The position numbers and the translations under genes are program-made. The notes below the pieces were generated by a model that made no database searches, was not told the origin of the DNA, and saw nothing but the letters and a program-made list of their open reading frames with translations. Shown here in pieces: positions 384 to 20,000 of a DNA stretch of 20,000 nucleotides (the first letter of the stretch is position 1; the number at the start of each line of letters is the position of its first letter). Source of the DNA: an uncultured virus (IMG/VR IMGVR_UViG_3300008116_000198) (lineage: Duplodnaviria > Heunggongvirae > Uroviricota > Caudoviricetes); the IMG/VR virus record IMGVR_UViG_3300008116_000198; one strand, written 5' to 3'.

Positions 384-394
384 AATATCAATTT

Positions 395-847: not shown

Positions 848-887
848 TAAAAATATAAAATATTTTGTATTTTTCGTAAATACATAT

Positions 888-896
888 ATATTTATT
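888..896 (+). promoter_or_regulatory. Candidate late promoter (ATATTTAT motif) for the scaffold-capsid operon
   Basis: ATATTTATT about 95 nt upstream of ATG 990. The same core sits in sense orientation upstream of starts at 5543, 5452 (minus) and 11824. Confidence 0.45.
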
Positions 897-907
897 TATT
901 ATAAAAT

Positions 908-967
908 GCATCATTATTTGATGCTTAGTCGGAATAAAACAATTTCTTGAAACTCTTAATAGTTTCA
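908..967 (+). promoter_or_regulatory. Two stem-loops in the putative 5' leader of the scaffold gene
   Basis: GCATCA-ttatt-TGATGC (908-924) and TGAAACT-cttaat-AGTTTCA (948-967), followed by an AAGGA SD-like element before ATG 990. Confidence 0.45.
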
Positions 968-989
968 TCAACAAAAGGATAAAACTATT

Positions 990-2237: not shown

Positions 2238-2269
2238 AAATCAACAATCAACCTTAACAAGGAAAAAAT

Positions 2270-3886
2270 ATGTCAGACATCAAATCACTACTAACTGAGA
2301 CAACCAATCCAATGGTTAAGCTCATGAGCGAAACCCGTGGACTAGTGTCCAAATGGGAAAAGACTGGTCTTCTAGAAGGAATTAAGACCGACATGGAAAA
2401 ATCACACATGTCGATTCTTTTGGAAAACCAAGCAAAGCAACTAATCGACGAAGCTACCCGCACTGGTACTTCAGCTAACTCCGAACAATGGGCAGGCGTT
2501 GCTCTTCCATTGGTTCGCCGTGTTTTCGCTGAAATCGCCGCTAAGGAATTCGTCAGCGTTCAGCCAATGAACCTACCATCAGGTCTAGTATTCTATCTAG
2601 ACTTCAAGTATGGTACCAACCAAGCTGGAAAACCAGCATTCGTAAACCAAAGCTTGTTCGGTGGAACAGGAACAAAGTTGGGTTCAACCGACAGCGCAGT
2701 CAATGGTCTATATGGCCAAGGCCGCTTCGGTTACACCATCAATGACGTTTCTGGAAGCTCAAACTTCACAGGAACAGCCACAACTGGTTCATGGTTGGAT
2801 GCAAAGTTCGTTCCAGAACTATCATCATCAATCGTTGCTACCGAAATCATCAAGATCACCGTTGACATGGATCCAGACACATATGGAACCGATCTAAATG
2901 GTGCTCGCGCATTCACGATCTCTGGATCTGGAATCGTTGATTTCTACCCAGCATTCACAAGCGTTTCTGGAAACAATGTTTCGTTCATCGTTTCTGGTTC
3001 CGCAATTGGTGCATCCCCATCCGTAAAGATCGTTTATCACAAGCAACCAGCACCAACAAGCCGTGGCGACTTCGAAGATCTCGGCGCAGGATTGCCAAAT
3101 CAAACAGGTGTTGCCAATGACGTTGGAATTCCAGAAGTCAACCTAGAGTTGAAGTCCGAAGCCATCGTTGCAAAGACACGCAAGTTGAAAGCCGTCTGGA
3201 CACCAGAATTGGCTCAAGACTTGAACGCATATCACTCAATCGACGCAGAAGCAGAATTGACTGCTCTATTGAGCGAATACGTTTCGATGGAAATCGACCT
3301 AGAAATCCTCGACATGTTGGTAACAGCCGCTCCAACAGCAACAACCGAATACTGGTCAGCACGTATCGGTGACGAATATGACACAACACAAAACAAGTTC
3401 GTCGCAACTGCTGCTAACCGTACAGCATACGTAAAGAGCACATGGTTCCAAACATTGGGCAACAAGATCCAAAAGGTCTCCAACAAGATCCACCAGTTGA
3501 CACTACGTGGTGGAGCAAACTTCCTAGTTTGCAGCCCAGACGTTGCAACCATCATCGAATCCATCCCTGGCTTCACAACCAACACAGATGGTGACCAAGC
3601 AAAGTTCGCAATGGGCGTTGCCAAGGTCGGTGCTCTAAGCAACCGTTGGACAGTATACAAGAACCCATACATGACCGACAACGTCATGTTGGTTGGTTTC
3701 CGTGGAAGCAACTTCCTAGAAACCGGCGCTGTATACGCTCCATACATCCCACTGATCCAAACACCATTGGTGTACGATCCAGTGAACTTCACACCACGCC
3801 GTGGTGTGATGACACGTTATGCAAAGAAGATGATCCGCCCAGAATTCTACGGCAAGATCGTCATCGGTGCATTGAACGAAGTCTAA
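2270..3886 (+). CDS. gp23: Major capsid protein, T4 gp23 family
   Basis: Family motifs LLENQ, VQPMNLPSGLVF, AKTRKLKAVWTPELAQDLNAYHSIDAEAEL...EIDLEI, YAPYIPL, FTPRRGVMTRY. AAGGA SD-like element. Strong bias to C-ending codons (AAC, TTC, ATC), typical of high expression. Confidence 0.97.
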   Translation: MSDIKSLLTETTNPMVKLMSETRGLVSKWEKTGLLEGIKTDMEKSHMSILLENQAKQLIDEATRTGTSANSEQWAGVALPLVRRVFAEIAAKEFVSVQPMNLPSGLVFYLDFKYGTNQAGKPAFVNQSLFGGTGTKLGSTDSAVNGLYGQGRFGYTINDVSGSSNFTGTATTGSWLDAKFVPELSSSIVATEIIKITVDMDPDTYGTDLNGARAFTISGSGIVDFYPAFTSVSGNNVSFIVSGSAIGASPSVKIVYHKQPAPTSRGDFEDLGAGLPNQTGVANDVGIPEVNLELKSEAIVAKTRKLKAVWTPELAQDLNAYHSIDAEAELTALLSEYVSMEIDLEILDMLVTAAPTATTEYWSARIGDEYDTTQNKFVATAANRTAYVKSTWFQTLGNKIQKVSNKIHQLTLRGGANFLVCSPDVATIIESIPGFTTNTDGDQAKFAMGVAKVGALSNRWTVYKNPYMTDNVMLVGFRGSNFLETGAVYAPYIPLIQTPLVYDPVNFTPRRGVMTRYAKKMIRPEFYGKIVIGALNEV

Positions 3887-4777: not shown

Positions 4778-5452
4778 TCAGCCACCTGATTTAAACACAG
4801 AAGCATTCCAATTCATTCTTTTCTTAACACCCTGATTGGTTGTTGTCTTATATTCTTTATGGTTTAAATATTCCTTGGCTGCGTCTTGGAATTTATATTG
4901 GTCCAATAGCTTCATTGTTTCTGGACCAAGATCTCCTTTTTTTCCAAACCCTCTGAATCCCGCATTTATAATTGCGATTTTGATTGTAAGAGGAAATGTA
5001 TCAAATTTCTTCATGAGTCTTTTGGCAGTATCAATTGTTCTATTAATGTCTTTGTTCAACAATTTAATAGCTTCATCATCAGTAAGTCCTTTACTGAAAT
5101 CTTCGCCTTGTTGTATTTTGTGACCATATGCAATAGTATCACTGCCACCTTCTAAACTTTTATGCGGAAACCATTTTTTCAATTGCTTGTTATATCCACC
5201 TCTTGGATTATCTTTGCTGTTTTCAAATTTCATGATTACGTTGGCCGCTTTTGATGCAACATCTTCTACCTTGGCCGTACCACTAAAATCAATATCGGGC
5301 TGCGTATAAGGCTTTCCAGCGGCACTTGACGCTGGTTGTGCATATGCGTGTTGCGCAGGAGGCATCACAAACTTTACTGGTGGTAAATCTGCCACAGGAG
5401 CTTCAATCAATTTTTGTTCTTTTAGTAAATCTTTTAGTTTGATGATACTCAT
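4778..5452 (-). CDS. T4-lysozyme-like (GH24-like) peptidoglycan hydrolase with N-terminal extension
   Basis: IMKFE...GGSDTIAYGH...GLTDDEAIKLLNKDI...AIINAGF...FQDAAKEYL...KRM follows the phage lysozyme pattern. The first ~65 aa are IKLKDLLKE plus a Pro/Ala-rich linker. Confidence 0.8.
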   Translation of the reverse strand: MSIIKLKDLLKEQKLIEAPVADLPPVKFVMPPAQHAYAQPASSAAGKPYTQPDIDFSGTAKVEDVASKAANVIMKFENSKDNPRGGYNKQLKKWFPHKSLEGGSDTIAYGHKIQQGEDFSKGLTDDEAIKLLNKDINRTIDTAKRLMKKFDTFPLTIKIAIINAGFRGFGKKGDLGPETMKLLDQYKFQDAAKEYLNHKEYKTTTNQGVKKRMNWNASVFKSGG

Positions 5453-5542: not shown

Positions 5543-6769
5543 ATGGCAGACACATCGATAAATTACACCGTAGATCAGGATCGCGTGAGATGGCCGGGGT
5601 CTGGTTCCGCAATCACACCCGGAAGCGGCTCAACTCCTTTTGGATTTTACGATGGTGATGCAGTTTTTCAGTTGGACGCGCCGAATGCAGCAAAATGGGC
5701 GGCAACAAGATTGGGCTATCCAATCACCGACATTGAAATGATTGACAAAAATTTTTATGCATGTTTTGAAGAAGCATGTTTTGAATATAGCGCACAAGTA
5801 AATCAGTTTAATATTCGCAACAACATGGGTGTGTTGCAAGGAAGTTCAGCCAATGTTAATTTGACCCAAACAAATGTTGCAGCAAGTGGACTGCCACAAT
5901 TGATCAGATTGGCTGAAGGATATGGAACAGAGTTTGGTGTTGGTGGAAAAGTAGATTGGAAAAAAGGATTTATACATGTTGAAGCAAAAAAGCAAACATA
6001 TGATCTTCAGGCTTTGTGGGGAAATGTAAGTGAAAGTTTTGATCGTATTGAAATTCGCAGAATTTTTCATCAGATGCCACCCGCTGCTGCAAGAATTTAT
6101 GATCCATTCAGCATGACTGGTATGAGCTATAGCAATGTATTGAATGAAATGGGATTTGCTGGGTATTCTCCTGCCACACAATTTTTGATGACGCCAATCT
6201 TTGAAGACTTGCTAAGAATGCAGGCAATTGAATTTAATGACCTTGTTAGAAAATCGGCATGGAGTTTTGAATTGGTAAACAACAAATTGAAATTATTCCC
6301 AATTCCAACATATGATTTCACGATGTATTTTGAATATCTGCTTGTGAAAGATCGCGACAGTCAGGGCATATACAATTCTGGTTCATTCTATGTTTCTGGC
6401 AGCAACACTGTTGTTTCATCATCTGTGATTGGAGATTATAGCAATGTGCCTTACAACAATATTCCATACACCACCATAAACAGTGTAGGTAAACAATGGA
6501 TAAGAAAATATTTCCTCGCGCTTTGTAAAGAAGTGCTTGGAAGCATTCGCCAAAAGTATCAAACCATTCCAATTCCCGGAGCAGAAGTCACACTTGATGG
6601 TGGAGAATTGCGTCAAGAAGCATCGTCTGAAAAAGAAGCATTGATTACTCAGCTAAGAGAAAATCTTGAAGCCACTGGCAGAAAAGCTCAAATGGAACTA
6701 AGAGAAGCCGAGGCGCAACAACTTCAAGCAACACTCCAAAAAGTTCCGATGGGAATTTATATTGGATGA
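5543..6769 (+). CDS. gp13: Neck / head-tail adaptor protein, T4 gp13-like
   Basis: N-terminal RLGYPITDIEM and C-terminal WIRKYFLALCKEVLGSIRQKY...IPGAEVTLDGGELRQEA..EKEAL resemble conserved gp13 segments. Followed downstream by gp14- and gp15-like genes. Confidence 0.85.
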   Translation: MADTSINYTVDQDRVRWPGSGSAITPGSGSTPFGFYDGDAVFQLDAPNAAKWAATRLGYPITDIEMIDKNFYACFEEACFEYSAQVNQFNIRNNMGVLQGSSANVNLTQTNVAASGLPQLIRLAEGYGTEFGVGGKVDWKKGFIHVEAKKQTYDLQALWGNVSESFDRIEIRRIFHQMPPAAARIYDPFSMTGMSYSNVLNEMGFAGYSPATQFLMTPIFEDLLRMQAIEFNDLVRKSAWSFELVNNKLKLFPIPTYDFTMYFEYLLVKDRDSQGIYNSGSFYVSGSNTVVSSSVIGDYSNVPYNNIPYTTINSVGKQWIRKYFLALCKEVLGSIRQKYQTIPIPGAEVTLDGGELRQEASSEKEALITQLRENLEATGRKAQMELREAEAQQLQATLQKVPMGIYIG

Positions 6770-7173
6770 AACCTTTCTCGTTACTAGATCAAGTATTGTC
6801 CGAGAGTGAAAGAAAAAGAATGAAATTTGTCGGACTAAAAAGAACTCTCAAACCGAGAGGCAAGTTCACATCATTGGAAAGAAAATATTATCTCATGCTG
6901 AAGAACTTGGATGTCTATTATGTTCCGCAATATCCGATGGGAGGAAGATATTACGACGCATATCTGCCAGATCAAAACATACTATTTGAATTTGATGGTT
7001 CATTTTGGCATCCAAAGAATGAAGATGATGCAAAATATGATTTTCAGAAAAAAGCATTTAAAGTTGATGAACTGAAAAACAAGATGGCTGAAAAGAAAGG
7101 AATGAAGATCATTCGCATTCGTGAAGATGAACCAATCACATTGGAACAGATGAAAAAATTGATCTTCTCATAA
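6766..7173 (+). CDS. Vsr/DUF559-like PD-(D/E)xK-fold endonuclease
   Basis: TSLE...PQYPMGGRYYDAYLPDQNILFEFDGSFWH...DELKNKMAEKKGMKIIRIRE matches the Vsr/DUF559 pattern. ATGA overlap with the gp13 stop codon. Confidence 0.82.
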   Translation: MKPFSLLDQVLSESERKRMKFVGLKRTLKPRGKFTSLERKYYLMLKNLDVYYVPQYPMGGRYYDAYLPDQNILFEFDGSFWHPKNEDDAKYDFQKKAFKVDELKNKMAEKKGMKIIRIREDEPITLEQMKKLIFS

Positions 7174-7176
7174 GTT

Positions 7177-9153
7177 ATGCCAATCAAGTATATAAATAAA
7201 AATACAATTTCTACAACATCCACTTCACTTGGAAGTTTTGTTGGAAGGTCTGCGTCTGAAGCCAGCGGTTGGAGAGGTATTACATATGGAAATGGTTTAT
7301 TTGTTGCAACGGCATATTCTTCAGGAACAAACAGAGTAATGACATCTCCAAATGGAATAACTTGGACATCTAGGTCAGATGCTCTTAATCCTCAATATGG
7401 ATCAGATAATTGGATTAGTGTTACATACGGAAACGGATTATTCGTGGCTGTTTCTAGTACCTCTGGAGGATCGTCTGGAAAGGTAATGACATCTCCCGAT
7501 GGAATAACTTGGACAACTAGAAATGCAAATCCTGTAGCCAATATTTGGTATAGTGTTACATACGGAAACGGATTATTTGTGGCCGTTGCAGGTAGCGGAA
7601 CAAACCGAGTAATGACTTCAACAGATGGAATAACTTGGACAGCAAGATCCGCTGCGGAAAATAATACTTGGCGAGATGTTACATATGGAGGCGGATTATT
7701 TGTAGCCCTTGCACAAGACGGAACAAACCGAGTCATGACTTCAACAGACGGAATAACTTGGACAGCGAGATCTGCGGCTGAAGCCAATAGTTGGTCTGGT
7801 GCAGTATACGGAAACGGATTATTTGTGGCCGTTGCACAAGACGGAACAAACCGAGTCATGACTTCAACAGACGGAATAACTTGGACAGCGAGATCTGCGG
7901 CTGAAGCCAATAGTTGGCAAAAAATATCATATGGAAATGGTATGTTTGTGGCAGTGGCCTCAGATGGAACAAATAGAATCATGTCCTCAACAGACGGAAT
8001 AACTTGGACATCAAGGTCTGCGCCAGAACAAACTCAATGGGTAAATATAACGTATGCCAGTGGATCTTTTGTTGGAATTGCACAAAGCGGAACTAATAGA
8101 GTTATGACCGCAGATTTGACTACAAATGTACTTGTTTCCGGTGGAATGAAATTTATAAACAGAAACAATAATACTTCTAATAGAAGAATGGGATTCATAA
8201 TACCGCCCGGCCCTGTTGTTTATAGTCCAACTCAAAGAGCAATATTTGGGTATGGTGAAGCTGGAAGTTATCAATCAATCACGAATTTGGTAAGTAATAC
8301 AGGAGTTCTTGCCAATGATGTTGCCGGTGTTGGTACTGCAAGAGCATATTTAGGTGCTGCTGGGTATGGAGGAGACAAAGCTATATTTGCGTATGGAGTC
8401 GTAGCCGGAACGACTAATATAAAAAACCTTGTCAGCAACACCGGCGTTGTGGCTGCTGATTCGTCTGGAGTAGGAACATCTAGAAATAAGCTCGGTGCGG
8501 TAAGTTATGGAATAGATAAAGCGATATTTGGATATGGATCAACGGTTTACGGCACTCCTTCTTCCAGTGAAAGAGTATCAATGACAAATCTAGTTAGTAA
8601 CACGGGAGTTGTGGCTACTGATACAACAGGTGTTGGTTCAAGTAGATACAACCTTGCTGCGACTGGCTATGGCGGTGATAAAGCTATGTTTGTATATGGT
8701 CAATTAGATGGTAACAACAACGGATTGTTAACAGTCAATCTTGTGAGCAACACTGGAGTTGTTGCGTCTGATACAAGCGCCGCCGCTGGCACTGCAAAGA
8801 CACAAGGCGCGGGAGCAAATTACGGAGGAGATAAGGGTATAATTGGATTTGGAATATCCGGCGGCTCATATACGAGAGAAACCAATTTAGTTTCTAACAC
8901 AGGAGTAATTGCATCGAACACCGCTAACTATTATGGTTACATAGGTGGGGTGAACGATGTTCTAGAAAGAGGTTGGTTGGCCGCTGCTGGATATGGTGGT
9001 GATAAAGCCATATTTGGATTTGGGGCATTGAATGCAAGTAGATATAGTTATACAAATCTTGTCAGTAATACAGGTGTGGTCGCGTCAAATACATATAATT
9101 CCAATCCAACTACAAGATATGGACTGGCCGCAGCAGGATACTCTTTAACATAA
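7177..9153 (+). CDS. Two-domain repeat protein: 7 Asp-box/BNR-like blades plus 6 Kelch-like repeats; probable virion-associated adhesin
   Basis: Seven ~41-aa repeats WxxvTYGNGLFVAvA..GTNRVMTStDGITWTaRS, then six ~48-57-aa repeats KAIFGYG...NLVSNTGVVA.D...R..LAA.GYGGD. Function is inferred. Confidence 0.8.
   Translation: MPIKYINKNTISTTSTSLGSFVGRSASEASGWRGITYGNGLFVATAYSSGTNRVMTSPNGITWTSRSDALNPQYGSDNWISVTYGNGLFVAVSSTSGGSSGKVMTSPDGITWTTRNANPVANIWYSVTYGNGLFVAVAGSGTNRVMTSTDGITWTARSAAENNTWRDVTYGGGLFVALAQDGTNRVMTSTDGITWTARSAAEANSWSGAVYGNGLFVAVAQDGTNRVMTSTDGITWTARSAAEANSWQKISYGNGMFVAVASDGTNRIMSSTDGITWTSRSAPEQTQWVNITYASGSFVGIAQSGTNRVMTADLTTNVLVSGGMKFINRNNNTSNRRMGFIIPPGPVVYSPTQRAIFGYGEAGSYQSITNLVSNTGVLANDVAGVGTARAYLGAAGYGGDKAIFAYGVVAGTTNIKNLVSNTGVVAADSSGVGTSRNKLGAVSYGIDKAIFGYGSTVYGTPSSSERVSMTNLVSNTGVVATDTTGVGSSRYNLAATGYGGDKAMFVYGQLDGNNNGLLTVNLVSNTGVVASDTSAAAGTAKTQGAGANYGGDKGIIGFGISGGSYTRETNLVSNTGVIASNTANYYGYIGGVNDVLERGWLAAAGYGGDKAIFGFGALNASRYSYTNLVSNTGVVASNTYNSNPTTRYGLAAAGYSLT
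7709..7917 (+). repeat. Exact 86-nt direct repeat within the first propeller
   Basis: 7709-7794 is identical to 7832-7917, offset 123 nt (one 41-aa blade). Confidence 0.92.
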
Positions 9154-10308: not shown

Positions 10309-11709
10309 ATGGCATGGCGCGGACCAACTCAAAGACCAACGGTCAATAAGCCTGTTCCAAATCCAATAAATTATGGACCAGAGATGTCTGACTCAAAAAA
10401 GCCTGTATCTCAGGCCGTGGCTGGTCCTGAATACAAGCCAAACAGAGCATTTGATGTTCGTCGCGATACTGATAAACAGAAAAACTTTTCCGTTAAACTA
10501 GTTGACGTTGATTCGACCATATTGAGTTATCTTGACACCGTCATTAGTCCTACAATCGTTGACTCAGGAAGACAAATCAAAGTACCAATCAATTATGCTT
10601 CACCAGAAAGATGGAAAGCTATAAGAAAAGATGGAGCATTGCGTGACAAAAATGGAAAAGTGCAAACTCCTGCCATTGCATTTCGTCGCAGCACAATGCA
10701 AAGAAATGATCAGCTGATAACTCTAAACAGATATTTGCAATATCCTGTGCAGAAGAAATTCAGCGAAAAGAACAAATATGACAAATTTAGTGTCATGCAT
10801 GGATTTGCGCCAACAAAGGAAATATACAGTGTGGCGATGCCAGATCATGTTATTGTGAATTATGAATTCATCGTGTGGACTGAACTTGTCGAGCAAGGTA
10901 ATGCCATAGTCGAAGCAATCAATTTTTCTACCGAGGATTATTGGGGCGACAAGAAAAGATTCAAATTCAGAACAAGTATCAGCGACTATAGTTTTGAAAC
11001 CGCCACAGACGCTGGTAATGATAGACTCGTAAGAAGCACATTCACATTATTGTGTTATGCATATCTGCTTCCGGATAAATATGAAAATTACAAGAGTGTA
11101 GTGCAAAAAGCGTTCACACCAAGAAAAATACTTTTCACCACAGAAGTTGTTACAGAAAATTTAAATGCAAGAACAACCGAACTTGGTTCAGCAACACCTG
11201 TTCAAATGAAATCGCCCGCTGCTTCATCTGGTGTGTTTGGTGGATTCCCGGGCATTACTCAAATCGCTAACTACGCAAATGCAGCAGGAACAGCAAATAC
11301 AGCAAATTATGCAACAACTGCAAGCTATGTAAACTTCTCTGAAATAAATGGAAATTTCAATGGTATCACTATCAACGGAGAATCTGGTGCAACAGGATCA
11401 ATCAACACAAATGTCACAGTTAATGTTACACCAGATTCTGGTTCTGTATATATCGACAGTATACCAATCTCAAGTGGAAATACAGCAAAATGGCTGATAT
11501 CCATTAATGATGGTGTTAATAATTTCAAGGCTAGCGAAATGGTAGCAAGTTGGAACAATACTATGGTCAAATATTACAACACAGAAGTAAGTGAAATAGG
11601 AAGCGTGCCAGTAACACTCTCGGTGGATAACACTGGCGGCAATATAAATCTACTTGCGACGGCGTTCAGCGGCAATTGGACAATAAAAATGATACGCATG
11701 GTTGTTTGA
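10309..11709 (+). CDS. gp15: Tail terminator / sheath stabiliser, T4 gp15-like, with ~185-aa C-terminal extension
   Basis: IKVPINYASPERW, PAIAFRR, PDHVIVNYEFIVWT...NAIVEAI and LVRSTFTL..YAYL follow the gp15 pattern. An extra fibre-like segment follows ~11150. Confidence 0.78.
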   Translation: MAWRGPTQRPTVNKPVPNPINYGPEMSDSKKPVSQAVAGPEYKPNRAFDVRRDTDKQKNFSVKLVDVDSTILSYLDTVISPTIVDSGRQIKVPINYASPERWKAIRKDGALRDKNGKVQTPAIAFRRSTMQRNDQLITLNRYLQYPVQKKFSEKNKYDKFSVMHGFAPTKEIYSVAMPDHVIVNYEFIVWTELVEQGNAIVEAINFSTEDYWGDKKRFKFRTSISDYSFETATDAGNDRLVRSTFTLLCYAYLLPDKYENYKSVVQKAFTPRKILFTTEVVTENLNARTTELGSATPVQMKSPAASSGVFGGFPGITQIANYANAAGTANTANYATTASYVNFSEINGNFNGITINGESGATGSINTNVTVNVTPDSGSVYIDSIPISSGNTAKWLISINDGVNNFKASEMVASWNNTMVKYYNTEVSEIGSVPVTLSVDNTGGNINLLATAFSGNWTIKMIRMVV

Positions 11710-11823: not shown

Positions 11824-14800
11824 ATGAGCAACGAACTAATTGTCAGAAATGGCTTGATTGTATCTGGTACATCCAGCTTTTCTGGCAGCGTATTCATAAA
11901 TGGAAATACTGTTGTAACAGGTTCTATCATCAGTAATCAAGTTGCATACTTAACAGCAAGCCAAGCTTTGACAGCTTCACATGTTCTTGGATTGCCAGAT
12001 ACATCAAGTTGGGCTCTTAATGCTGTATCTGCTGCCTTTTCAGAATATGCAGTAAGTGCATCATATGTTATTGGCGCACCTGATACAGCAAGTTGGGCAT
12101 TAAATGCTGTTTCATCTTCATACGCATTATCATCTTCATATGCTGTTTCGTCATCTTATTCATTATCGGGGTCGTATGTTGATACTGCTTCATATTCAAA
12201 TTATGCAGTAAGTGCGTCATATGTTATTGGTGCTCCAGATACTGCTTCATGGGCATTGAATGCTGTTACAGCTTCTTATGTTGAATATACAAATGTAGAT
12301 AAGATAACATCAACATCACAATTTGCTGGAACAGCAAGTTATGCTCAAAGAGCAAACAGCATCAAAAGTGGAATTGACATTGATGTAACTTCAATAACAG
12401 CATCAGCAATACGTGTTGATAATCTACATGTTGTTACCATAACAAGTAGTGTAAATTTTGTTTCTGGTAGCACAGACTTTGGAACAAGTATAACTGATAC
12501 ACATGTTTTCACAGGCAGTCTTTTTGTTCAAGGAAACATAAATGTTGAAGATGGTTATGGTATACAAGGAACTTCGTCGTATGCTGTAACAGCAAGTTAT
12601 GCTTTTAACACCAGTACATCTGGTACTAGTGGCACAAGCGGAAGTAGTGGAAGCAGTGGCAGTAGCGGAACAAGTGGTAGTAGTGGAAGTGCTGGTACAA
12701 GTGGTAGCAGTGGCACAAGTGGCACCGATGGATCAAGTGGTAGTAGTGGAACGGGAGGAAGTAGTGGTAGTAGTGGAACAAGTGGTAGTAGTGGTAGTAG
12801 TGGCAGCAGTGGATCAAGCGGATCATCTGGTACAAGTGGATCATCTGGTACAAGTGGATCAAGTGGAACAACGGGTACGAGTGGTAGTAGTGGAAGCGGT
12901 GGTACAAGTGGAACCAGCGGTTCGTCTGGAACAAGCGGAACGAGTGGAAGTAGTGGTACAAGTGGAACAGACGGATCGTCTGGATCTAGCGGCAGTAGTG
13001 GATCTTCTGGTACAAGTGGAAGTAGTGGTACAAGTGGAACTGGTGGATCGTCTGGTTCGAGTGGAAGTAGCGGTTCTTCGGGAACAAGTGGATCAAGTGG
13101 AACTTCTGGCTCAAGCGGTACTTCTGGATCAAGTGGTAGCAGCGGTAGTAGTGGTAGTAGTGGAACAAGTGGAAGCAGTGGAACAAGTGGTAGTAGTGGT
13201 AGTAGCGGCACTAGCGGCAGCAGCGGAACAACAGGAACAAGTGGTAGCAGTGGATCTTCTGGTACAACTGGAACGAGTGGAAGCAGTGGAAGTGCTGGTA
13301 CCAGCGGAAGTAGTGGAACCAGTGGTACAGATGGTTCAAGTGGAAGTAGTGGCAGTGCCGGTACAAGTGGCAGTAGCGGCAGTAGTGGAACCAGCGGTTC
13401 AAGTGGTAGCAGCGGTACAAGTGCAACATCGGGATCAAGTGGTACTAGCGGAAGCAGTGGTAGTAGTGGATCTTCTGGTACAAGCGGAAGCGGAGGAACA
13501 AGCGGCAGTAGCGGAAGTAGTGGTACTACTGGAACAAGCGGTAGTAGCGGTACCAGTGGAACAGATGGTAGCTCTGGGTCAAGTGGAAGTGCTGGAACAA
13601 GTGGTTCTAGTGGATCTAGTGGAAGTAGTGGTACGAGTGGATCAAGTGGAAGTAGTGGAACTAGTGGCAGCAGCGGCAGCAGCGGAACAAGTGCAACTTC
13701 TGGATCTTCTGGAACAAGCGGTAGTAGTGGCAGCAGTGGAAGTAGTGGAACCAGTGGCTCGTCTGGATCGGCAGGTACAAGTGGATCTAGTGGAAGTGCT
13801 GGTACAAGTGGTAGCAGTGGCACAAGTGGTACCGATGGTTCCAGTGGTAGCAGCGGAAGCAGCGGATCATCTGGTTCTTCTGGTACCAGTGGAAGTAGCG
13901 GAACCAGTGGATCTTCTGGTACAAGTGGAAGTAGCGGTACCAGCGGTAGTAGTGGAACAAGCGGAAGCAGCGGTAGCAGTGGTAGTAGTGGAACCAGTGG
14001 TAGCAGTGGAAGCAGCGGCAGTAGTGGAAGCAGCGGCAGCAGTGGAACAGCAGGTTCTTCTGGTAGCAGTGGATCAAGTGGATACACACCAGAAAACATG
14101 GTTACAAGTTCTTTCCAACTTTCAAACGATGGCGGTCTTGCATTCAGCAGTGCAAACAATGTTACATTTGGTCAAATCACCGCTTCTATTATCACTGTAT
14201 CAACATTATATGTTCAAAACATAACAAGCAGTACAGAACTTGTAACTGGAAGTTTTGTTGTAAGTGGATCCTTTGATGCAATCGGTGGAGTAACAGGAAG
14301 TCTTCTTGGTACAGCAAGTTATGCTCTACAAGCTCTGACCGCTTCATATGCACTTAATGCTGAAGGATCAAATAAAACACAACTTACTGCTTCAACAATA
14401 TTATTTACAGGAAGCGCGACAAATCTTTCACTAAATGTTTCATCGTCGGGTGATGTTGCCATAACTGGCATAAATAATGGAGATATTGTTGTAATATCAG
14501 ATTCAACAAGTTCAACTCCATTATTTGGAATTGAAAGTGTAAACAATCCTTTATTCAGTGTATATAATAGCGGAAATGCATATTTGAGTGGAAGCTTGTC
14601 TGCTTCATTATATGGTACAGCAAGTTGGGCAGTTACAGCAAGCTATGCTTTAAGCTACAGTGGAACATCTGGTAGTAGTGGCACAAGCGGAACATCTGGT
14701 TCAAGTGGCAGTGCTGGTACAAGTGGTAGTAGTGGAACAAGTGGAACAGACGGTAGTTCGGGTTCGTCTGGAACTGGTGGATCAAGTGGATCTTCAGGTA

Positions 14801-17800
14801 GCTCTGGTACGTCTGCAACTTCTGGAACTGGTGGATCAAGTGGAAGTTCTGGAACTAGTGGAAGTAGTGGAACAGGAGGTTCTTCTGGAAGCAGTGGAAC
14901 AAGTGGAAGTAGTGGTAGCGGTGGAAGTAGTGGTTCAAGTGGAACTTCTGGTTCATCAGGAACCAGTGGAAGCAGCGGAACTTCTGGTACAGATGGTAGT
15001 AGTGGAAGTGCTGGTACCAGTGGCAGTGCAGGTACTAGTGGTACAGACGGATCAAGTGGTACCAGTGGTAGTGCAGGTACGAGTGGAAGTAGTGGTACCA
15101 GCGGTAGCAGTGGTACAAGTGGAACTGCTGGATCAAGCGGAACGTCTGGGTCAAGTGGTTCTTCTGGTACAACTGGAACTTCTGGAAGCAGCGGAACTGC
15201 TGGTTCAAGTGGAAGTGCAGGAACATCGGGAAGTGCTGGATCTTCTGGTTCGGCTGGAACAAGTGGTAGTAGTGCAAGTGCCGGTACCAGTGGCACAAGC
15301 GGCACAGATGGATCAAGTGGTAGCAGTGGTTCTGGTGGATCAAGCGGAAGTAGTGGCACAGCTGGTAGCAGTGGAAGTAGTGGTACAAGCGGTAGCAGTG
15401 GTTCGAGTGGAACCAGTGCAACCAGTGGAAGTAGCGGTACATCTGGTACCAGTGGAAGTAGCGGTACATCTGGTTCAAGTGGAACAAGCGGTACTGATGG
15501 TAGCAGCGGAAGTAGTGGTAGTAGTGGATCTTCGGGATCAAGTGGTACTGGTGGAACAAGTGGTAGCAGTGGTACCACAGGAAGTAGTGGTAGTAGTGGT
15601 AGCGCAGGAAGTAGTGGTAGTAGTGGTTCATCTGGATCAAGTGGTACAGGAGGAAGTTCAGGAACAAGTGGAACCAGTGGTAGCAGTGGAACGGGTGGTA
15701 GTAGCGGATCAAGTGGTACTAGCGGAACAGATGGTAGCAGTGGTAGCAGCGGCAGTGGAGGAAGTTCTGGAACAAGCGGTACAGATGGTACCAGTGGTAG
15801 CAGTGGAACTTCAGGTACTTCTGGTTCAAGTGGAAGTGCAGGAACTAGTGGCAGCAGCGGAAGTAGTGGCACTACTGGAACAAGCGGTAGTAGCGGTACC
15901 AGTGGAACAGATGGTAGTAGCGGTAGTAGTGGAACAAGTGGGTCTACTGGTACAAGTGGTAGCAGCGGATCAAGTGGTAGTAGTGGTAGTAGTGGAACAA
16001 CAGGAACAAGTGGTAGTAGTGGTACAAGTGGAACATCTGGTTCGGCTGGCTCTGCCGGATCAAGCGGTAGCAGCGGTAGTAGTGGAGCAGGAACAATTTC
16101 TGGTGGAACAAGCAACTATGTGGCAAAATTTAGCAATGCCACAACACTGACTACAAGTTCAATCTTTGATGGTGGATCTGGAGTTGGTATAAATAAATCT
16201 ACAGCAAATTCCACACTTGATGTAAATGGTAATACAATAATCACTGGATCATTGACTGTTACCCAGAACGTAACCGCTTCAAACATTGTTGTTACAAATC
16301 TTTATGTACAAAACATAACTGCTTCCACGGAAATTGTAACAGGAAGTACTCAGTTTGGAACATTGCTTTCAAACAAGCATATGTTCACTGGAAGTGTTGA
16401 AATAACAAGTTCATTAAAGGTAAATGGTGATTTTTCAGTAAATGGAAATACAGGCAGCTTGGCTTTCTCAAGCAACGCAGATACTTTGGAAATAACTGGT
16501 TCATTATTATTAAGTGGATCAATGTTTGTTACAGGAAGTATCTCTGTAAATGGTAGTATAACTGGTTCACTTTTTGGCACGGCTTCGTATGCATTAAACG
16601 CACTTACTGCTTCATACGCTTTAAGTTATAGTGGTACGAGCGGTAGCAGTGGAACCAGTGGGTCTTCTGGTACGTCTGGTACAAATGGAACCAGTGGATC
16701 AAGCGGAACTGGCGGAACCAGTGGAAGCAGTGGTACAGGTGGATCTTCTGGAAGTAGCGGAACGAGTGGTAGTAGTGGAAGTTCTGGTACAAGTGGTACG
16801 AGTGGTAGTAGTGGAACATCTGGAACAGATGGTAGTTCTGGATCAAGCGGTTCAAGTGGCTCCAGTGGATCATCTGGTACTTCTGGTAGCGCAGGAACAT
16901 CGGGATCTGCTGGATCGGCTGGAAGTAGCGGTAGCAGTGGAAGTGCTGGTACAAGTGGTACGAGTGGTAGTAGTGGAACATCTGGCACGGACGGAAGTAG
17001 TGGAAGTTCTGGTAGTAGTGGTACCGCTGGTACTTCTGGTAGTGCAGGTACTAGTGGAAGTAGTGGTTCGAGTGGAACATCTGGAACAGATGGAAGCAGT
17101 GGTAGTAGTGGTACTTCTGGTAGTGCCGGTACTGGTGGTTCAAGTGGAAGCAGTGGTTCATCTGGAACGAGTGGGGAAGGCGGAAGTGCAGGAACATCTG
17201 GTACAAGCGGCAGTGCTGGTACGAGTGGAACGAGTGGTAGTGCTGGAACTGCTGGATCCAGTGGTAGTGCGGGAACATCAGGTTCTGCTGGATCAGCTGG
17301 AACAAGTGGTAGTAGTGGAAGTGCTGGTACAAGTGGTACCAGCGGTTCAAGCGGAACATCTGGAACCAGTGGAAGTAGTGGATCCAGTGGAAGCAGCGGA
17401 TCTTCTGGAACGAGTGGTAGTGCTGGTACTTCTGGTAGTAGTGGAACAGCTGGAACAAGTGGATCGGCCGGTTCAAGTGGTTCTTCTGGAAGTGGAGGAA
17501 GTTCTGGATCGGCTGGAACATCTGGTACAAGCGGCAGTTCTGGTACAAGTGGTACAAATGGCTCAAGTGGTACTTCTGGTACTAGCGGATCTTCTGGAAC
17601 GGGTGGAACTAGTGGTAGTAGTGGAAGTGCTGGCAGTGCAGGTAGTGCAGGATCAAGCGGCACAAGTCCAATAATAACTGGAACAAACTTCACGCTTGCA
17701 TTGTTCAGCGGAAGTAATGGATTGAGTAGCAGTGTGTTAAGTCAATATGATAATGGATTATATTTGACTGGATCGTTGAATGTAAGTGGATCAACTCTAC

Positions 17801-20000
17801 AAGTTGGTAATAACACATTACTTGGTAACACATCACTTAGTGGTAGTTTAACAATTTCTGGTGCATTTGCCACAGCAACACCAAGTGTAAATATTTTCGG
17901 AGATATTTCACAGACTGGATATCTCAGATTTAACCCAGTTAATACAAATATAAATCAAAGCATTTCCGCTTCATACATTTATGTCTCTGGTAGTACAAAT
18001 GATTTATATTTTGCTCAGAATGGAAGTGGATACAGTAACAATACTCGTCTTCGTTGGTTGGAAGGAGTATTATATACTGGATTGCTAAATGGTGGATTGG
18101 TATCAAGCACAGTTGGTTCTACTACTTTCAACATATCTTCTGGCAGTGGTATAATTGTAACTTTAAATGCTAGTTTAAGCACAGATCCATTTCCAACTGT
18201 AAAATATGTAAATTGGGGAAATTACAATAATCAACCAATAACATACTCTGGCTCCGCCAAGTTGACATATGTTGGTATTGATTCGAATGGGGCAGTTGTT
18301 CAACAAGTTGAGCCTTGGGGTTCAACAAACATAGATCAATTTGACAGCCAAATATTACTTGGTATTGTGTTGCATTTGAGTGGAAGTATTTCATCGGGAG
18401 TATTTAATTCACCACAAACAGCATATGGTAATTCTCAAAAATCAGACGACTTTTTCAGATCGTTTGGTCCATTAAAAGTAAGTGGGCATACATTGCAAAC
18501 CAGTGGGTCTTCGCTTGGCCTTACAAAGGCTGGTGGTACAGCATACAGAGATGGTGCAAATTATGTTACCAACCCAAATCACCCATCAACGGTCGTTGAA
18601 AATTCTATAACAACAAGTAAAATTTACAGATATTATGTGTCTGGATCAACGCCTATAATTGATACTGGTGTTGGTGCATCAGGTTATACCGCAATAGATC
18701 CAAATAATTACAACAATAATGGAGTACTTACTTCTGTTCCTTCAAACAATTATACTATTCAGAGAGTATTTTGGACTCCAAATTCTCCAACTAATGCATT
18801 TGTAGTTTATTATGGAACTGCAACATATTCCAATTTGTTGACCGCAGTCAATGCCAAGGATAGTGAACCATTTTCAGAAGCTCCAGATACAGCCGCCGAT
18901 GCAATCTTCTTAGGTCATATTGTTGTAAAAGAAGGAACTACAAACCTAACTGTTGCAAATGATTGCACGATAATTCAAGGCGGACTATTTAGAAATATTG
19001 CAGGTGTTGGATCAAGTGGAACTGCTGCTCCTGTTGTAAATCTTTCTGGTTTGGGTGACGTTTTAATATCCGTACCAACAGACGGTCAACCTCTTGTATA
19101 TGATTCAACAGCATTGAAGTGGAGAAACTTGTCTGCCATAACCGCTTCGTTGTATGGTAATGCATCAACGGCAACAAGTGCTTCGTATGCTACCACAGCA
19201 AGCTATGCTTTCAGTTATAGCGGAACGTCTGGTAGCAGCGGCACAAGCGGAACTTCTGGTACAGCAGGATCTGCTGGAACTTCTGGTACAAGCGGAAGTA
19301 GTGGCACAAGTGGAACAAATGGATCTTCTGGTACAAGTGGAACTAGTGGATCAAGCGGAACAAGTGGAACAAGCGCATCCGCTGGAAGTAGTGGTTCAAG
19401 TGGAAGCGCAGGAACTGCTGGATCTAGTGGTAGTGCTGGAACAAGTGGCAGCAGCGGAACGTCTGGTACTGGCGGTAGCAGTGGAACATCTGGTAGTAGT
19501 GGATCTGGCGGTAGCAGTGGTTCAGCTGGATCGTCTGGATCAAGTGGCAGTGCTGGAACAAGTGGAAGTGCAGGAACATCTGGGTCAACAGGTTCGAGTG
19601 GAAGCAGTGGAAGTGCAGGTAGTGCGGGAACATCTGGATCAAGTGGTAGTGCTGGAACTGCTGGTAGTGCTGGTTCGGCTGGTACAAGTGGAACGAGTGG
19701 ATCTTCTGGAAGCAGTGGAAGTTCTGGATCAAGTGGTACAAGTGGAACTTCTGGATCAAGTGGAACTTCTGGATCAAGTGGTAGTAGTGGAACAAGTGCT
19801 TCATCTGGAAGCAGTGGCACAAGCGGAGCAACGGGTGCATCTGGGTCAAGTGGTACAAGTGGAACTTCTGGCTCCGCAGGTTCTGCTGGATCAAGTGGTA
19901 GTAGTGGAAGCAGCGGTGCTGGAACAATATCAGGCGGTACAGCAAATTATGTAACAAAGTTTAGCAATGCGACTACATTGACCACGAGTTCAATATTTGA
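11824..20000 (+). CDS. Giant (at least 2725 aa, 3'-truncated) modular fibre-like virion protein with four Gly-X-Ser tracts
   Basis: Frame 1 is open from ATG 11824 (MSNELIVRNGLIVSGTSSFSGSVFING...) to the window end (…KFSNATTLTTSSIF). No in-frame stop was seen on reading. It contains TAS[YW]A repeats, beta-rich spacers and a fibre-type motif LSGLGDVLISVPTDGQPLVYDSTALKWRN (~19042-19128). Confidence 0.9.
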   Translation, partial: MSNELIVRNGLIVSGTSSFSGSVFINGNTVVTGSIISNQVAYLTASQALTASHVLGLPDTSSWALNAVSAAFSEYAVSASYVIGAPDTASWALNAVSSSYALSSSYAVSSSYSLSGSYVDTASYSNYAVSASYVIGAPDTASWALNAVTASYVEYTNVDKITSTSQFAGTASYAQRANSIKSGIDIDVTSITASAIRVDNLHVVTITSSVNFVSGSTDFGTSITDTHVFTGSLFVQGNINVEDGYGIQGTSSYAVTASYAFNTSTSGTSGTSGSSGSSGSSGTSGSSGSAGTSGSSGTSGTDGSSGSSGTGGSSGSSGTSGSSGSSGSSGSSGSSGTSGSSGTSGSSGTTGTSGSSGSGGTSGTSGSSGTSGTSGSSGTSGTDGSSGSSGSSGSSGTSGSSGTSGTGGSSGSSGSSGSSGTSGSSGTSGSSGTSGSSGSSGSSGSSGTSGSSGTSGSSGSSGTSGSSGTTGTSGSSGSSGTTGTSGSSGSAGTSGSSGTSGTDGSSGSSGSAGTSGSSGSSGTSGSSGSSGTSATSGSSGTSGSSGSSGSSGTSGSGGTSGSSGSSGTTGTSGSSGTSGTDGSSGSSGSAGTSGSSGSSGSSGTSGSSGSSGTSGSSGSSGTSATSGSSGTSGSSGSSGSSGTSGSSGSAGTSGSSGSAGTSGSSGTSGTDGSSGSSGSSGSSGSSGTSGSSGTSGSSGTSGSSGTSGSSGTSGSSGSSGSSGTSGSSGSSGSSGSSGSSGTAGSSGSSGSSGYTPENMVTSSFQLSNDGGLAFSSANNVTFGQITASIITVSTLYVQNITSSTELVTGSFVVSGSFDAIGGVTGSLLGTASYALQALTASYALNAEGSNKTQLTASTILFTGSATNLSLNVSSSGDVAITGINNGDIVVISDSTSSTPLFGIESVNNPLFSVYNSGNAYLSGSLSASLYGTASWAVTASYALSYSGTSGSSGTSGTSGSSGSAGTSGSSGTSGTDGSSGSSGTGGSSGSSGSSGTSATSGTGGSSGSSGTSGSSGTGGSSGSSGTSGSSGSGGSSGSSGTSGSSGTSGSSGTSGTDGSSGSAGTSGSAGTSGTDGSSGTSGSAGTSGSSGTSGSSGTSGTAGSSGTSGSSGSSGTTGTSGSSGTAGSSGSAGTSGSAGSSGSAGTSGSSASAGTSGTSGTDGSSGSSGSGGSSGSSGTAGSSGSSGTSGSSGSSGTSATSGSSGTSGTSGSSGTSGSSGTSGTDGSSGSSGSSGSSGSSGTGGTSGSSGTTGSSGSSGSAGSSGSSGSSGSSGTGGSSGTSGTSGSSGTGGSSGSSGTSGTDGSSGSSGSGGSSGTSGTDGTSGSSGTSGTSGSSGSAGTSGSSGSSGTTGTSGSSGTSGTDGSSGSSGTSGSTGTSGSSGSSGSSGSSGTTGTSGSSGTSGTSGSAGSAGSSGSSGSSGAGTISGGTSNYVAKFSNATTLTTSSIFDGGSGVGINKSTANSTLDVNGNTIITGSLTVTQNVTASNIVVTNLYVQNITASTEIVTGSTQFGTLLSNKHMFTGSVEITSSLKVNGDFSVNGNTGSLAFSSNADTLEITGSLLLSGSMFVTGSISVNGSITGSLFGTASYALNALTASYALSYSGTSGSSGTSGSSGTSGTNGTSGSSGTGGTSGSSGTGGSSGSSGTSGSSGSSGTSGTSGSSGTSGTDGSSGSSGSSGSSGSSGTSGSAGTSGSAGSAGSSGSSGSAGTSGTSGSSGTSGTDGSSGSSGSSGTAGTSGSAGTSGSSGSSGTSGTDGSSGSSGTSGSAGTGGSSGSSGSSGTSGEGGSAGTSGTSGSAGTSGTSGSAGTAGSSGSAGTSGSAGSAGTSGSSGSAGTSGTSGSSGTSGTSGSSGSSGSSGSSGTSGSAGTSGSSGTAGTSGSAGSSGSSGSGGSSGSAGTSGTSGSSGTSGTNGSSGTSGTSGSSGTGGTSGSSGSAGSAGSAGSSGTSPIITGTNFTLALFSGSNGLSSSVLSQYDNGLYLTGSLNVSGSTLQVGNNTLLGNTSLSGSLTISGAFATATPSVNIFGDISQTGYLRFNPVNTNINQSISASYIYVSGSTNDLYFAQNGSGYSNNTRLRWLEGVLYTGLLNGGLVSSTVGSTTFNISSGSGIIVTLNASLSTDPFPTVKYVNWGNYNNQPITYSGSAKLTYVGIDSNGAVVQQVEPWGSTNIDQFDSQILLGIVLHLSGSISSGVFNSPQTAYGNSQKSDDFFRSFGPLKVSGHTLQTSGSSLGLTKAGGTAYRDGANYVTNPNHPSTVVENSITTSKIYRYYVSGSTPIIDTGVGASGYTAIDPNNYNNNGVLTSVPSNNYTIQRVFWTPNSPTNAFVVYYGTATYSNLLTAVNAKDSEPFSEAPDTAADAIFLGHIVVKEGTTNLTVANDCTIIQGGLFRNIAGVGSSGTAAPVVNLSGLGDVLISVPTDGQPLVYDSTALKWRNLSAITASLYGNASTATSASYATTASYAFSYSGTSGSSGTSGTSGTAGSAGTSGTSGSSGTSGTNGSSGTSGTSGSSGTSGTSASAGSSGSSGSAGTAGSSGSAGTSGSSGTSGTGGSSGTSGSSGSGGSSGSAGSSGSSGSAGTSGSAGTSGSTGSSGSSGSAGSAGTSGSSGSAGTAGSAGSAGTSGTSGSSGSSGSSGSSGTSGTSGSSGTSGSSGSSGTSASSGSSGTSGATGASGSSGTSGTSGSAGSAGSSGSSGSSGAGTISGGTANYVTKFSNATTLTTSSIF
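12616..14082 (+). repeat. Gly-X-Y tract 1 (~489 aa; GSS/GTS)
   Basis: 9-nt periodic coding repeat with Gly every third residue. Confidence 0.95.
14659..16086 (+). repeat. Gly-X-Y tract 2 (~476 aa)
   Basis: GSS/GTS/GSA/GTD triplets between TASYALSY and AGTISGGTSNY. Confidence 0.95.
16630..17667 (+). repeat. Gly-X-Y tract 3 (~346 aa)
   Basis: GSS/GTS/GSA triplets between TASYALSY and PIITGTNF. Confidence 0.95.
19219..19917 (+). repeat. Gly-X-Y tract 4 (~233 aa)
   Basis: GSS/GTS/GSA triplets between TASYAFSY and AGTISGGTANY. Confidence 0.95.

Follow-up and report, generated by a model that had tools for sequence, protein, structure and literature searches.

A 20,000-nt stretch of DNA from an uncultured virus (IMG/VR record IMGVR_UViG_3300008116_000198), referred to below as the window, contains the greater part of a gene for a giant fibre protein, in which long tracts of Gly-X-Y triplets without proline, lysine or arginine alternate with non-repetitive modules. 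The window is part of a parent viral contig of 50,066 bp (G000), and a second assembly of the same phage comprises 184,824 bp (G001, CheckV completeness 78%). The Gly register of the tracts is under purifying selection, and the phage also encodes a predicted protein O-heptosyltransferase. The reading proposed here is that three copies of the protein form a beaded fibre of the collagen type carrying O-glycans added by the phage's own enzymes, and that a central domain resembling receptor-binding proteins (RBPs) and the C-terminal domain bind the host; a probability of roughly 0.55 is given to this picture as a whole.

The open reading frame (ORF) begins with an ATG at position 11824 of the plus strand and continues to the window end through 2,725 codons with no stop. 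It was recovered with an ORF listing that admits frames running off the window end, and its absence from the original ORF list is likely due to its running off in this way. A first-pass annotation made from the window alone had noticed an unlisted frame of at least 2725 amino acids (aa) with four tracts of about 489, 476, 346 and 233 aa. The frame is indeed present and the tracts measure 489, 477, 345 and 234 aa; extension of the contig, which that annotation had called for, yielded a complete gene of 3,410 aa with a stop at window-equivalent 22054-22056, and added a fifth tract. Window-equivalent positions continue the window numbering past the window ends onto the parent contig. The gene and its parts are as follows.

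11824..20000, plus strand: window part of the fibre gene, aa 1-2725 of 3,410 (whole gene G000:38764-48996)
11824..12621, plus strand: N-terminal region, aa 1-266, starting with MSNELIVRNGLIV and continuing with [ST]AS[YW]A-type repeats
12622..14088, plus strand: Gly-X-Y tract 1, aa 267-755, 489 aa, 163 triplets (161 with Gly and 2 with Ala first), matched by Pfam Collagen PF01391
14089..14661, plus strand: spacer 2, 191 aa, a post-tract module followed by a pre-tract module, 57% identical to spacer 5
14662..16092, plus strand: Gly-X-Y tract 2, aa 947-1423, 477 aa, 159 triplets (156 with Gly and 3 with Ala first)
16093..16632, plus strand: spacer 3, 180 aa, GAGTISGGTxNYVAKF...LDVNGNTIITGSL followed by pre-tract ...GTASYALNALTASYALSYS, 57-58% identical to spacers 5 and 6
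16633..17667, plus strand: Gly-X-Y tract 3, aa 1604-1948, 345 aa, 115 unbroken triplets
17668..19221, plus strand: central non-repeat domain, aa 1949-2466, 518 aa, RBP-like
19222..19923, plus strand: Gly-X-Y tract 4, aa 2467-2700, 234 aa, with a 9-nt Gly-Thr-Ser length polymorphism at 19357-19365
window-equivalent 19924-20616, plus strand: spacer 5, aa 2701-2931, 231 aa, within which the window ends (19924..20000)
window-equivalent 20617-21354, plus strand: Gly-X-Y tract 5, aa 2932-3177, 246 aa, beyond the window
window-equivalent 21355-22053, plus strand: C-terminal domain, aa 3178-3410, beyond the window

The five tracts total 1,791 aa, and their 597 first positions are occupied by 590 Gly and 7 Ala without a single register shift, the seven exceptions all being Gly-to-Ala replacements in register. 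The longest unbroken run is 115 triplets, compared with a maximum of 16 and a mean of 6.2 in 1,000 shuffles at the same composition. Pro, Lys and Arg are absent from all five tracts, while Asp occurs 16 times and Glu once; both the proline-free make-up with X and Y nearly all Ser or Thr and the lack of the usual stabilisers of a triple helix, which had been noticed at first pass, were thus confirmed. In the four window tracts the X position is taken by Ser, Thr and rarely Ala, and the Y position, in decreasing order, by Ser, Ala, Gly, Asp, Thr and Asn. Among the 590 Gly-led triplets GSS (271) and GTS (183) together account for 454, followed by GSA with 57.

A frame of this length through low-complexity repeats might be a product of misassembly, and there are two grounds for such a suspicion: both assemblies of the phage end within the tract of the next gene, and short-read contigs show many false joints between tracts. 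However, the second assembly aligns with G000 in the fibre region over 11,755 bases at 99.88% identity, with five single-nucleotide polymorphisms (SNPs) and one in-frame 9-nt gap, which is exactly the loss of one Gly-Thr-Ser triplet from tract 4. Near-identical DNA was found in 18 sequencing runs, of which eight, from 5 studies, carry no flag as a possible source. The contigs of four of these eight (4 studies) cover 30 of the 30 bins of the fibre gene, with some pieces lying wholly within tracts and some bridging tract-domain junctions; the differences per piece are mostly 0-5, with 11 in one piece, and the one-triplet deletion in tract 4 recurs in two of these four runs. The SNPs, moreover, sit on third positions of the fibre frame. 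An assembly artefact is hardly credible in the light of this agreement.

The same variation reveals how the gene evolves. Across the gene 19 of 27 SNPs are synonymous in the fibre frame, and within the tracts the ratio is 14 synonymous to 1 non-synonymous, the sole exception altering an off-register Gly and not a first position. Tandem-repeat DNA matches within the tracts amount to only 60-85%, and the codons used for Gly and Ser are diverse; the tract DNA is therefore not a product of recent slippage. Taken together, the shuffles, the codon diversity, the SNP pattern, the one-triplet indel and the agreeing assemblies show that the frame is translated and that the Gly register of the tracts is under purifying selection. 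There were no RNA runs among the listed holders of the near-identical sequence.

Stop codons are missing from the repeat DNA, and as a result each tract is overlain in five other frames, on both strands, by shadow ORFs of 80-541 aa (window 12597-14224, 14655-16150, 16604-17693 and 19154-19957), which gene callers could mis-annotate. As genes, the 80-540-aa ORFs in the other frames were rejected, as was a minus-strand 198-aa ORF located 3' of the fibre gene, which is a shadow of the next gene's tract.

The Gly period of the tracts is that of collagen, and Pfam Collagen PF01391 matches the fibre with an E value of 7e-174 and 564 bits against a cut-off of 27.2; in the Pfam scan, which covered the window part of the fibre (aa 1-2725), it was the only family found. 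The other hallmarks of collagen are missing: there are no imino acids in X and Y (0 Pro), and Lys-Asp/Glu salt bridges of the KGD/KGE type are precluded by the absence of Lys and Arg. Such inter-chain clamps have been proposed, in the part of the source concerned with them, as universal collagen folding clamps across life and viruses (PMC11923368), and in the source data of that work the viral triplet table lists KGD at 12.2%, TGP at 9.8%, SGT at 1.8% and SGS at 1.0%. Judged by composition, the tracts lie at the far edge of catalogued viral collagen-like domains.

The first-pass annotation had offered two forms for such a chain, a very long whisker, possibly glycosylated, or a row of compact polyglycine-II bricks. 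In the latter each chain would fold back into compact bundles of polyproline-II (PPII) helices with flat hydroxyl-rich faces, as in the snow-flea antifreeze protein or the gp38 tip of phage S16. Small residues would suit this fold, polyglycine-II bundles are known in phage fibres (bioRxiv 10.1101/2023.11.25.568672), and the rare triplets GTD, GTG, GSG and GTN could mark turns. According to the relevant section of the same source, however, two-layer PPII bundles need about two-thirds Gly, and Gly content climbs with the number of neighbouring helices; the Gly share here is 33.7-35.8% per tract, with only 3-10 off-register Gly in each. Short helices with regular turns are not apparent either: the rare triplets are irregularly placed, 3-46 triplets apart, the X-position autocorrelation of the tracts shows no strong super-period, the tracts contain no insertions or loop-like breaks, and their runs extend to 115 triplets. 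Bricks are accordingly a very unlikely form, and the long glycosylated whisker is the better fit, a heptosyltransferase being encoded by the phage and tracking such fibres. One-third Gly, in turn, is the content that lets three PPII chains pack as a collagen helix, as stated in part of the same source (bioRxiv 10.1101/2023.11.25.568672), and this content together with the lack of regular breaks favours a triple helix. A collagen-type three-chain helix thus appears to be the most economical fold of the tracts, although, taken singly, it is put forward with less confidence than the identity of the gene as a virion fibre gene.

A rather unlikely but more substantial alternative is that the tracts are not helical and form extended hydrated chains, possibly glycosylated in the manner of mucins, that serve as tethers between the virion and its trimeric knobs and binding domain; in that case the Gly period would be a by-product of repeat origin or of glycosyltransferase recognition. 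A make-up of Gly, Ser, Thr and Ala without Pro or charge pairs agrees with this, since it resembles designed flexible linkers and Ser/Thr-rich mucin domains. Tract length also appears free to vary, as in a relative (locus L009) with four shorter tracts that together comprise 465 aa of Gly-X-Y, the longest being 204 aa, and the model peptide (Gly-Pro-Thr)10, in the account given in one part of the source, is a random coil unless its Thr residues are galactosylated (PMC11923368). A pure linker, however, needs no register, and the register here survives divergence, SNPs and indels: all 597 first positions have remained Gly or Ala without a shift even though the repeat DNA diverged to 60-85%, tract SNPs are overwhelmingly synonymous, and the one indel removes a whole triplet. 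In addition, the same conserved entry and exit modules bracket each tract, as expected where the chains of a helix have to be set in register.

The entry module has the form '...GTASYAxTASYAxSYS' and the exit module the form 'GAGTISGGTxNYVxKF...LDVNGNTIITGSL'. Spacers 2, 3, 5 and 6 are paralogous, with 47-58% identity, and the N-terminal region is 30-38% identical to the spacer modules. The latter region, which matches no Pfam or PHROG family, is presumed to combine a virion anchor with the first pre-tract module, and a shorter neighbouring protein in L009 bears the same N-terminal sequence as the fibre. The post-tract module also follows proline-free tracts in other phage contigs; in one of them (L013) it precedes a C-terminal sequence that may be akin to an S74 chaperone. 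In tblastn searches spacer 5 had no match, and spacer 3 matched just 36 residues in the immuto phages of Flavobacterium.

The central domain is unique within the fibre. It shares 34-66% identity with 117 giant metagenomic proteins (1,875-4,107 aa), some of which carry PF13884 (Peptidase_S74) according to precomputed annotation. In tblastn searches it matched 17 phage records at 25-35% identity over 40-78% of the domain; five of these are annotated as tailspike, tail fiber or minor tail protein, in phages of Streptomyces, Stenotrophomonas and Flavobacterium, and the rest are mostly hypothetical. In the AlphaFold2 model of the domain (pLDDT 73.2) residues 133-255 form a predicted beta-sandwich like those of phage RBPs and TssK, at middling Z values: 8.1 for the fibre of cyanophage A-1(L) (root-mean-square deviation 2.5, 83 residues aligned), 7.8 for the HFTV1 fibre, 7.4 for the RBP of phage 1358, and 7.1 for both Mtd and TssK. 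The top 11 of 55 rows at Z of at least 2 are all of the RBP/TssK kind, lactococcal RBPs included, with Z values of 5.3-8.1. A Foldseek search against the PDB gave a single weak match for this domain, a baseplate chain of phi812 (E 3.5e-4, TM below 0.2), and when the C-terminal 261 aa were compared by sequence with solved structures, nothing meaningful emerged, the best E value being 0.16.

The assignment to the virion, made at first pass, is supported by matches of the fibre to PHROG tail-fibre families, by the homology of the central domain and by a gene context of head, neck and tail functions, and the gene can be regarded with high confidence as that of a real virion fibre. Were the protein not part of the virion, it might be made during infection as a coat of the host surface, a decoy or a matrix, with the glycan enzymes of the phage acting on host polysaccharide or DNA; phage enzymes of the GT2 and GtrB-like kinds (PHROG labels) do often modify O-antigen. 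Yet the gene stands in the head-neck-tail module on the same strand, its Pfam and PHROG matches are all of the fibre type, its central domain is homologous to tailspike and tail-fibre proteins, and TIGR04414, the model matched by the heptosyltransferase, is an equivalog for heptosylation of protein, not of polysaccharide. A role outside the virion is most improbable on these grounds.

The genes next to the fibre encode a T4-type major head protein, a nuclease, a head-tail adaptor, an HNH endonuclease and a protein weakly similar to gp15, and further upstream are the terminase, portal and prohead protease genes. With capsid proteins at 56-58% identity, Microcystis phage Mel-JY01 and the immuto phages are by this measure the nearest cultured relatives of the phage, a large uncultured freshwater myovirus. 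The syntenic regions of the immuto phages and Mel-JY01 contain no Gly-X-Y run of at least 6 triplets, and when the 11.8 kb upstream of the gene were compared with phage records by megablast, nothing matched. Two complete relatives have, along a single strand, the head and neck genes first, next one or more fibre genes and last the tail sheath gene, which places the fibre cluster between the neck module and the sheath. On the 184.8-kb record (78% complete) there is a weak Baseplate_J match and no match to a tail sheath. The gene is flanked by two others of interest.

10309..11709, plus strand: upstream neighbour of 466 aa with an N-terminal part weakly like the tail-sheath stabiliser gp15 of T4 (PF16724, E 2.8e-4, below the cut-off)
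window-equivalent 22099-23126 (G000:49039-50066), beginning 42 bp after the giant ORF: second fibre gene, with the N-terminal motif 'GELAINVADGKLF' and a proline-free Gly-X-Y tract of its own

The 466-aa gp15-like protein contains TASY-type repeats and is conserved in the immuto phages and Mel-JY01. Its C-terminal ~90 aa, which recur in fibre-type proteins, share 36% identity (E 4e-12) with the end of a 415-aa protein of L009 that starts with MSNELIVRNGLIV like the giant fibre; many of the 117 giant relatives terminate in a similar motif.

The enzymes that could modify the fibre are encoded upstream of the window in the parent contig.

G000:12753-14909 (window-equivalent -14187 to -12031), same strand as the fibre: 718-aa fusion of glycosyltransferase (GT) domains GT1 and GT9, with TIGR04414
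G000:6313-14909: glycan cluster comprising GT1+FkbM (642 aa), FkbM (215 aa), a rhamnosyl-O-methyltransferase-like protein (454 aa), GT2 (590 aa) and the 718-aa fusion

Residues 343-717 of the fusion match TIGR04414 over model positions 4-374 of 374 with 377.6 bits (E 6e-113), the cut-off being 200 bits, and by this equivalog model the protein is classified as a protein O-heptosyltransferase of the Aah/TibC type. Aah and TibC put heptose on Ser and Thr of Ser/Thr-rich repeat proteins, whose folding and stability are affected, as described in part of the source (PMC3835316). Adjoining the glycan cluster is a gene for a 1,300-aa protein (G000:14937-18839) with a weak cytidylyl/adenylyltransferase-like segment at aa ~345-410, below family cut-offs; it could act in sugar-nucleotide supply.

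In related phages the heptosyltransferase and such fibres are found together, in support of the idea of glycosylation. Of 10 other contigs bearing Gly-X-Y fibres, 3 encode the enzyme with a score above the cut-off, against 0 of 5 contigs without tracts in the fetched locus; the three positive contigs are those with tracts dominated by Ser and Thr, and two of them have the enzyme within a GT1/FkbM/GT9 cassette at a distance of ~2-7 kb from the fibre gene. When phage loci were anchored on the enzyme instead, a proline-free tract was present within 10 kb in 6 of 30. Seventeen lineage records, which are related, mostly fragments and in some cases near-identical, were scored for both genes: four have both, three the fibre alone, one the enzyme alone and nine neither. 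Both are present in the only complete genome among them, and both are absent from four large records of 88-251 kb. Fisher's exact test, computed by hand and one-sided, gives p ~0.06 for these non-independent records, or ~0.017 when two records of the immediate group (G001 and G002) are added. A thread of about half a micrometre with a coat of sugar is the probable form of the fibre, although its glycosylation, taken singly, is held with less confidence than its being a virion fibre.

The proposed course of events is as follows. Three 3,410-aa chains would assemble in parallel, the folded modules beside every tract would set the register, and each Gly-Ser/Thr-Ser tract would then zip into a collagen-type triple helix. 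Collagen rises ~0.29 nm per residue, from which the rods would measure ~140, 136, 99, 67 and 70 nm and the beaded thread would comprise ~0.5 micrometre of rod plus knobs; the ~440 nm estimated at first pass is of the same order and grows to this value with the fifth tract. The N-terminus may anchor the fibre near the neck or tail, leaving the central RBP-like and C-terminal domains to touch the host surface, and the long reach would enlarge the capture radius. As the tracts have neither proline nor salt bridges, O-glycans on Ser and Thr are proposed to stabilise and hydrate the helix and to shield it from proteases. The phage Aah/TibC-type heptosyltransferase would add them in the infected cell, and the GT1, GT2 and FkbM-type methyltransferase enzymes may extend or methylate them. 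Rod length would be tuned by gain or loss of whole triplets.

Several points weigh against this picture and limit the confidence placed in it. The tracts have none of the stabilisers that act without modification, and at ambient temperature the bare chain might adopt a coil; flexible linkers are classically rich in Gly and Ser. The (Gly-Pro-Thr)10 peptide, a coil without its sugar, still contains Pro, and together with the glycosylated BclA it is only a partial precedent for sugar replacing imino acids. Known substrates of Aah/TibC-type enzymes are beta-helical autotransporters, not collagen-like chains. In this phage the heptosyltransferase lies ~24 kb upstream of the fibre and not adjacent to it, and its co-occurrence with fibres, being imperfect and drawn from related fragmentary records, is suggestive only; three of the seven fibre-positive lineage records are without the enzyme, all of them fragments that are 21-28% complete. 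A gene of the ADP-heptose pathway was not found on the 184.8-kb record, nor were gmhA or rfaE domain II on G001, G002 and G004, so that the host would have to supply the donor. The Z values of the central domain are in a range that common architecture can yield, the PHROG scores of the fibre are largely driven by its repeats, and gene order does not tell attachment at the neck from attachment at the baseplate.

Fibres of this kind are common in the lineage. Conservation was measured on 80 capsid-anchored loci of the same lineage as this phage, 21 of which carry a same-strand tract of at least 20 triplets; 20 of these tracts have at most 1% Pro, and 17 have at least 50% Ser+Thr. Where the locus reaches at least 8 kb past the capsid gene, half (17 of 34) have a tract, starting 5.4-8.8 kb downstream, and near-identical DNA was present in runs of many freshwater studies. 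Other phage contigs have proline-free tracts of different make-up ahead of the same exit module. A viral contig of 151,972 bp (L064) has a single unbroken proline-free tract of 1,263 aa within 10 kb of a heptosyltransferase, and L036 has a single unbroken 945-aa tract of Gly, Ser, Thr and Asn, followed directly by a cassette of GT1/GT4 and GT9+FkbM+SDR. L009 combines the modules of the giant fibre with much shorter tracts. Three further contigs (L029, L033 and L038) bear hydrophobic proline-free Gly-Ser-Ile/Leu tracts, about one-third each of Gly, Ser and Ile/Leu, with the same exit module, and no heptosyltransferase was found on them.

An exhaustive phmmer search (E at most 1e-3) with tract 5 and the C-terminal domain as query returned 55,572 representatives; of the 150 top-ranked ones, 148 contain 100 aa or more of Gly-X-Y, only 18 have at most 0.5% Pro and none has at least 55% Ser+Thr, figures that are no measure of the frequency of the Ser/Thr class because the bias correction steers the search away from it.

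Tentatively, and as a possibility with the odds against it, the proposal may be extended to a widespread freshwater phage clade making 'glyco-collagen', that is, Gly-Ser/Thr-Ser helices without proline or charge pairs that would be stable only through a phage O-heptosylation cassette. This would be a third route to stability beside hydroxyproline and salt bridges, used to build fibres of half a micrometre whose length is tuned triplet by triplet.

Other genes of these loci were recorded along the way. In the window, a gene for an HNH/homing endonuclease of 135 aa (6766-7173) lies between the head-tail adaptor gene and a structural-module gene (7177-9153) encoding a 658-aa protein with DUF6242 and EPTP matches that is predicted to be beta-propeller-like. 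A segment of the latter gene (8230-8776) has copies of 64-66% identity elsewhere in the 184.8-kb record (G001:45647-46460), indicating a paralogue. The sole minus-strand gene of the structural module (4778-5452, 224 aa) weakly matches the C-terminal part of a baseplate hub/tail lysozyme PHROG. In L015, from a complete 221-kb phage (G005), six tandem genes for proteins of 220-252 aa (188-3725 and 7120-7875), each with a Laminin_G_3/ConA-like lectin domain, flank a Ser/Thr collagen-like fibre gene; they may encode interchangeable tips or accessory adhesins.

Collagen folding is today explained by imino acids, salt bridges or both, and here 590 triplets are kept under selection with neither. If the tracts are helical, a new stabilisation chemistry for collagen would be implied, for which the co-travelling heptosyltransferase cassette is a concrete and testable candidate. 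The phage would then decorate its virion fibre with sugars by means of enzymes whose family has until now been known from bacterial adhesins. A fibre several times the typical tail length would also alter the picture of host capture in dilute freshwater, and a collagen without proline or charge, of genetically tunable length, would be of interest as a material.

Smith et al. in 1998 reportedly described a 'bacteriophage collagen'. Collagen-like sequences have been noted in Prochlorococcus phage P-SSM2, whose orf028 is Gly-X-Y over 49% of its length, Pro, Ser or Thr being frequent at X and Y (PMC1079782), and in prophages of E. coli O157:H7, which encode the collagen-like proteins EPclA and EPclB (excerpts of PMC3368898, with details of EPclA in PMC11923368). 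Like these phage and prophage tail fibres, the protein described here is by its context a structural protein with long Gly-X-Y runs between non-collagen domains and is presumed to be trimeric. They differ in that the known fibres have Pro and/or ~22% charged residues, which are credited for their stability, whereas the present tracts have 0 Pro and 0 Lys/Arg. Among the best-ranked full-text matches of a literature search, whose coverage did not extend to subscription journals, there was no study of a collagen-like fibre of a phage with Ser/Thr tracts devoid of proline, nor of a heptosyltransferase encoded by a phage that modifies such a fibre.

BclA of the Bacillus exosporium nap is, unlike the fibre, a spore protein with about a hundred triplets or fewer, mostly Gly-Pro-Thr, and is modified by other glycosylating enzymes. 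It is comparable in having an O-glycosylated, Thr-rich collagen-like region and in forming a surface filament, and its O-glycans are thought, in the parts of the sources that treat them, to stabilise and hydrate it (PMC8968730, PMC11923368). The adhesins AIDA-I and TibA of E. coli, modified by Aah and TibC, respectively, are linked to this phage by an enzyme of the same equivalog family, TIGR04414, and are Ser/Thr-rich repeat proteins modified in the cytoplasm, as reported in part of the source (PMC3835316). They are, however, monomeric beta-helices of 19-residue repeats and not Gly-X-Y chains, and the phage enzyme differs from Aah and TibC in carrying an N-terminal GT1 domain; the fibre is a candidate substrate.

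The 117 giant metagenomic proteins share with the fibre the 518-aa domain, modules of [ST]AS[YFW]-type repeats and often the same N- and C-terminal motifs. Unlike the fibre, they have shafts of [ST]AS[YFW] repeats, and a Gly-X-Y run of at least 6 triplets occurs in only 4 of 117, where it spans 18-63 aa and includes Pro. The snow-flea antifreeze protein and the gp38 tip of Salmonella phage S16 resemble the tracts in their PPII-type backbone, small residues and, for gp38, use in a phage fibre (in the sections concerned of bioRxiv 10.1101/2023.11.25.568672). In contrast, these polyglycine-II bundles, as far as that part of the source describes them, have at least about two-thirds Gly in their inner helices, which are short and joined by turns, against one-third in the fibre. 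Set among these systems, the fibre has the Gly period of collagen but neither its imino acids nor its salt bridges, and it departs from polyglycine-II proteins both in Gly content and in the length and regularity of its runs.

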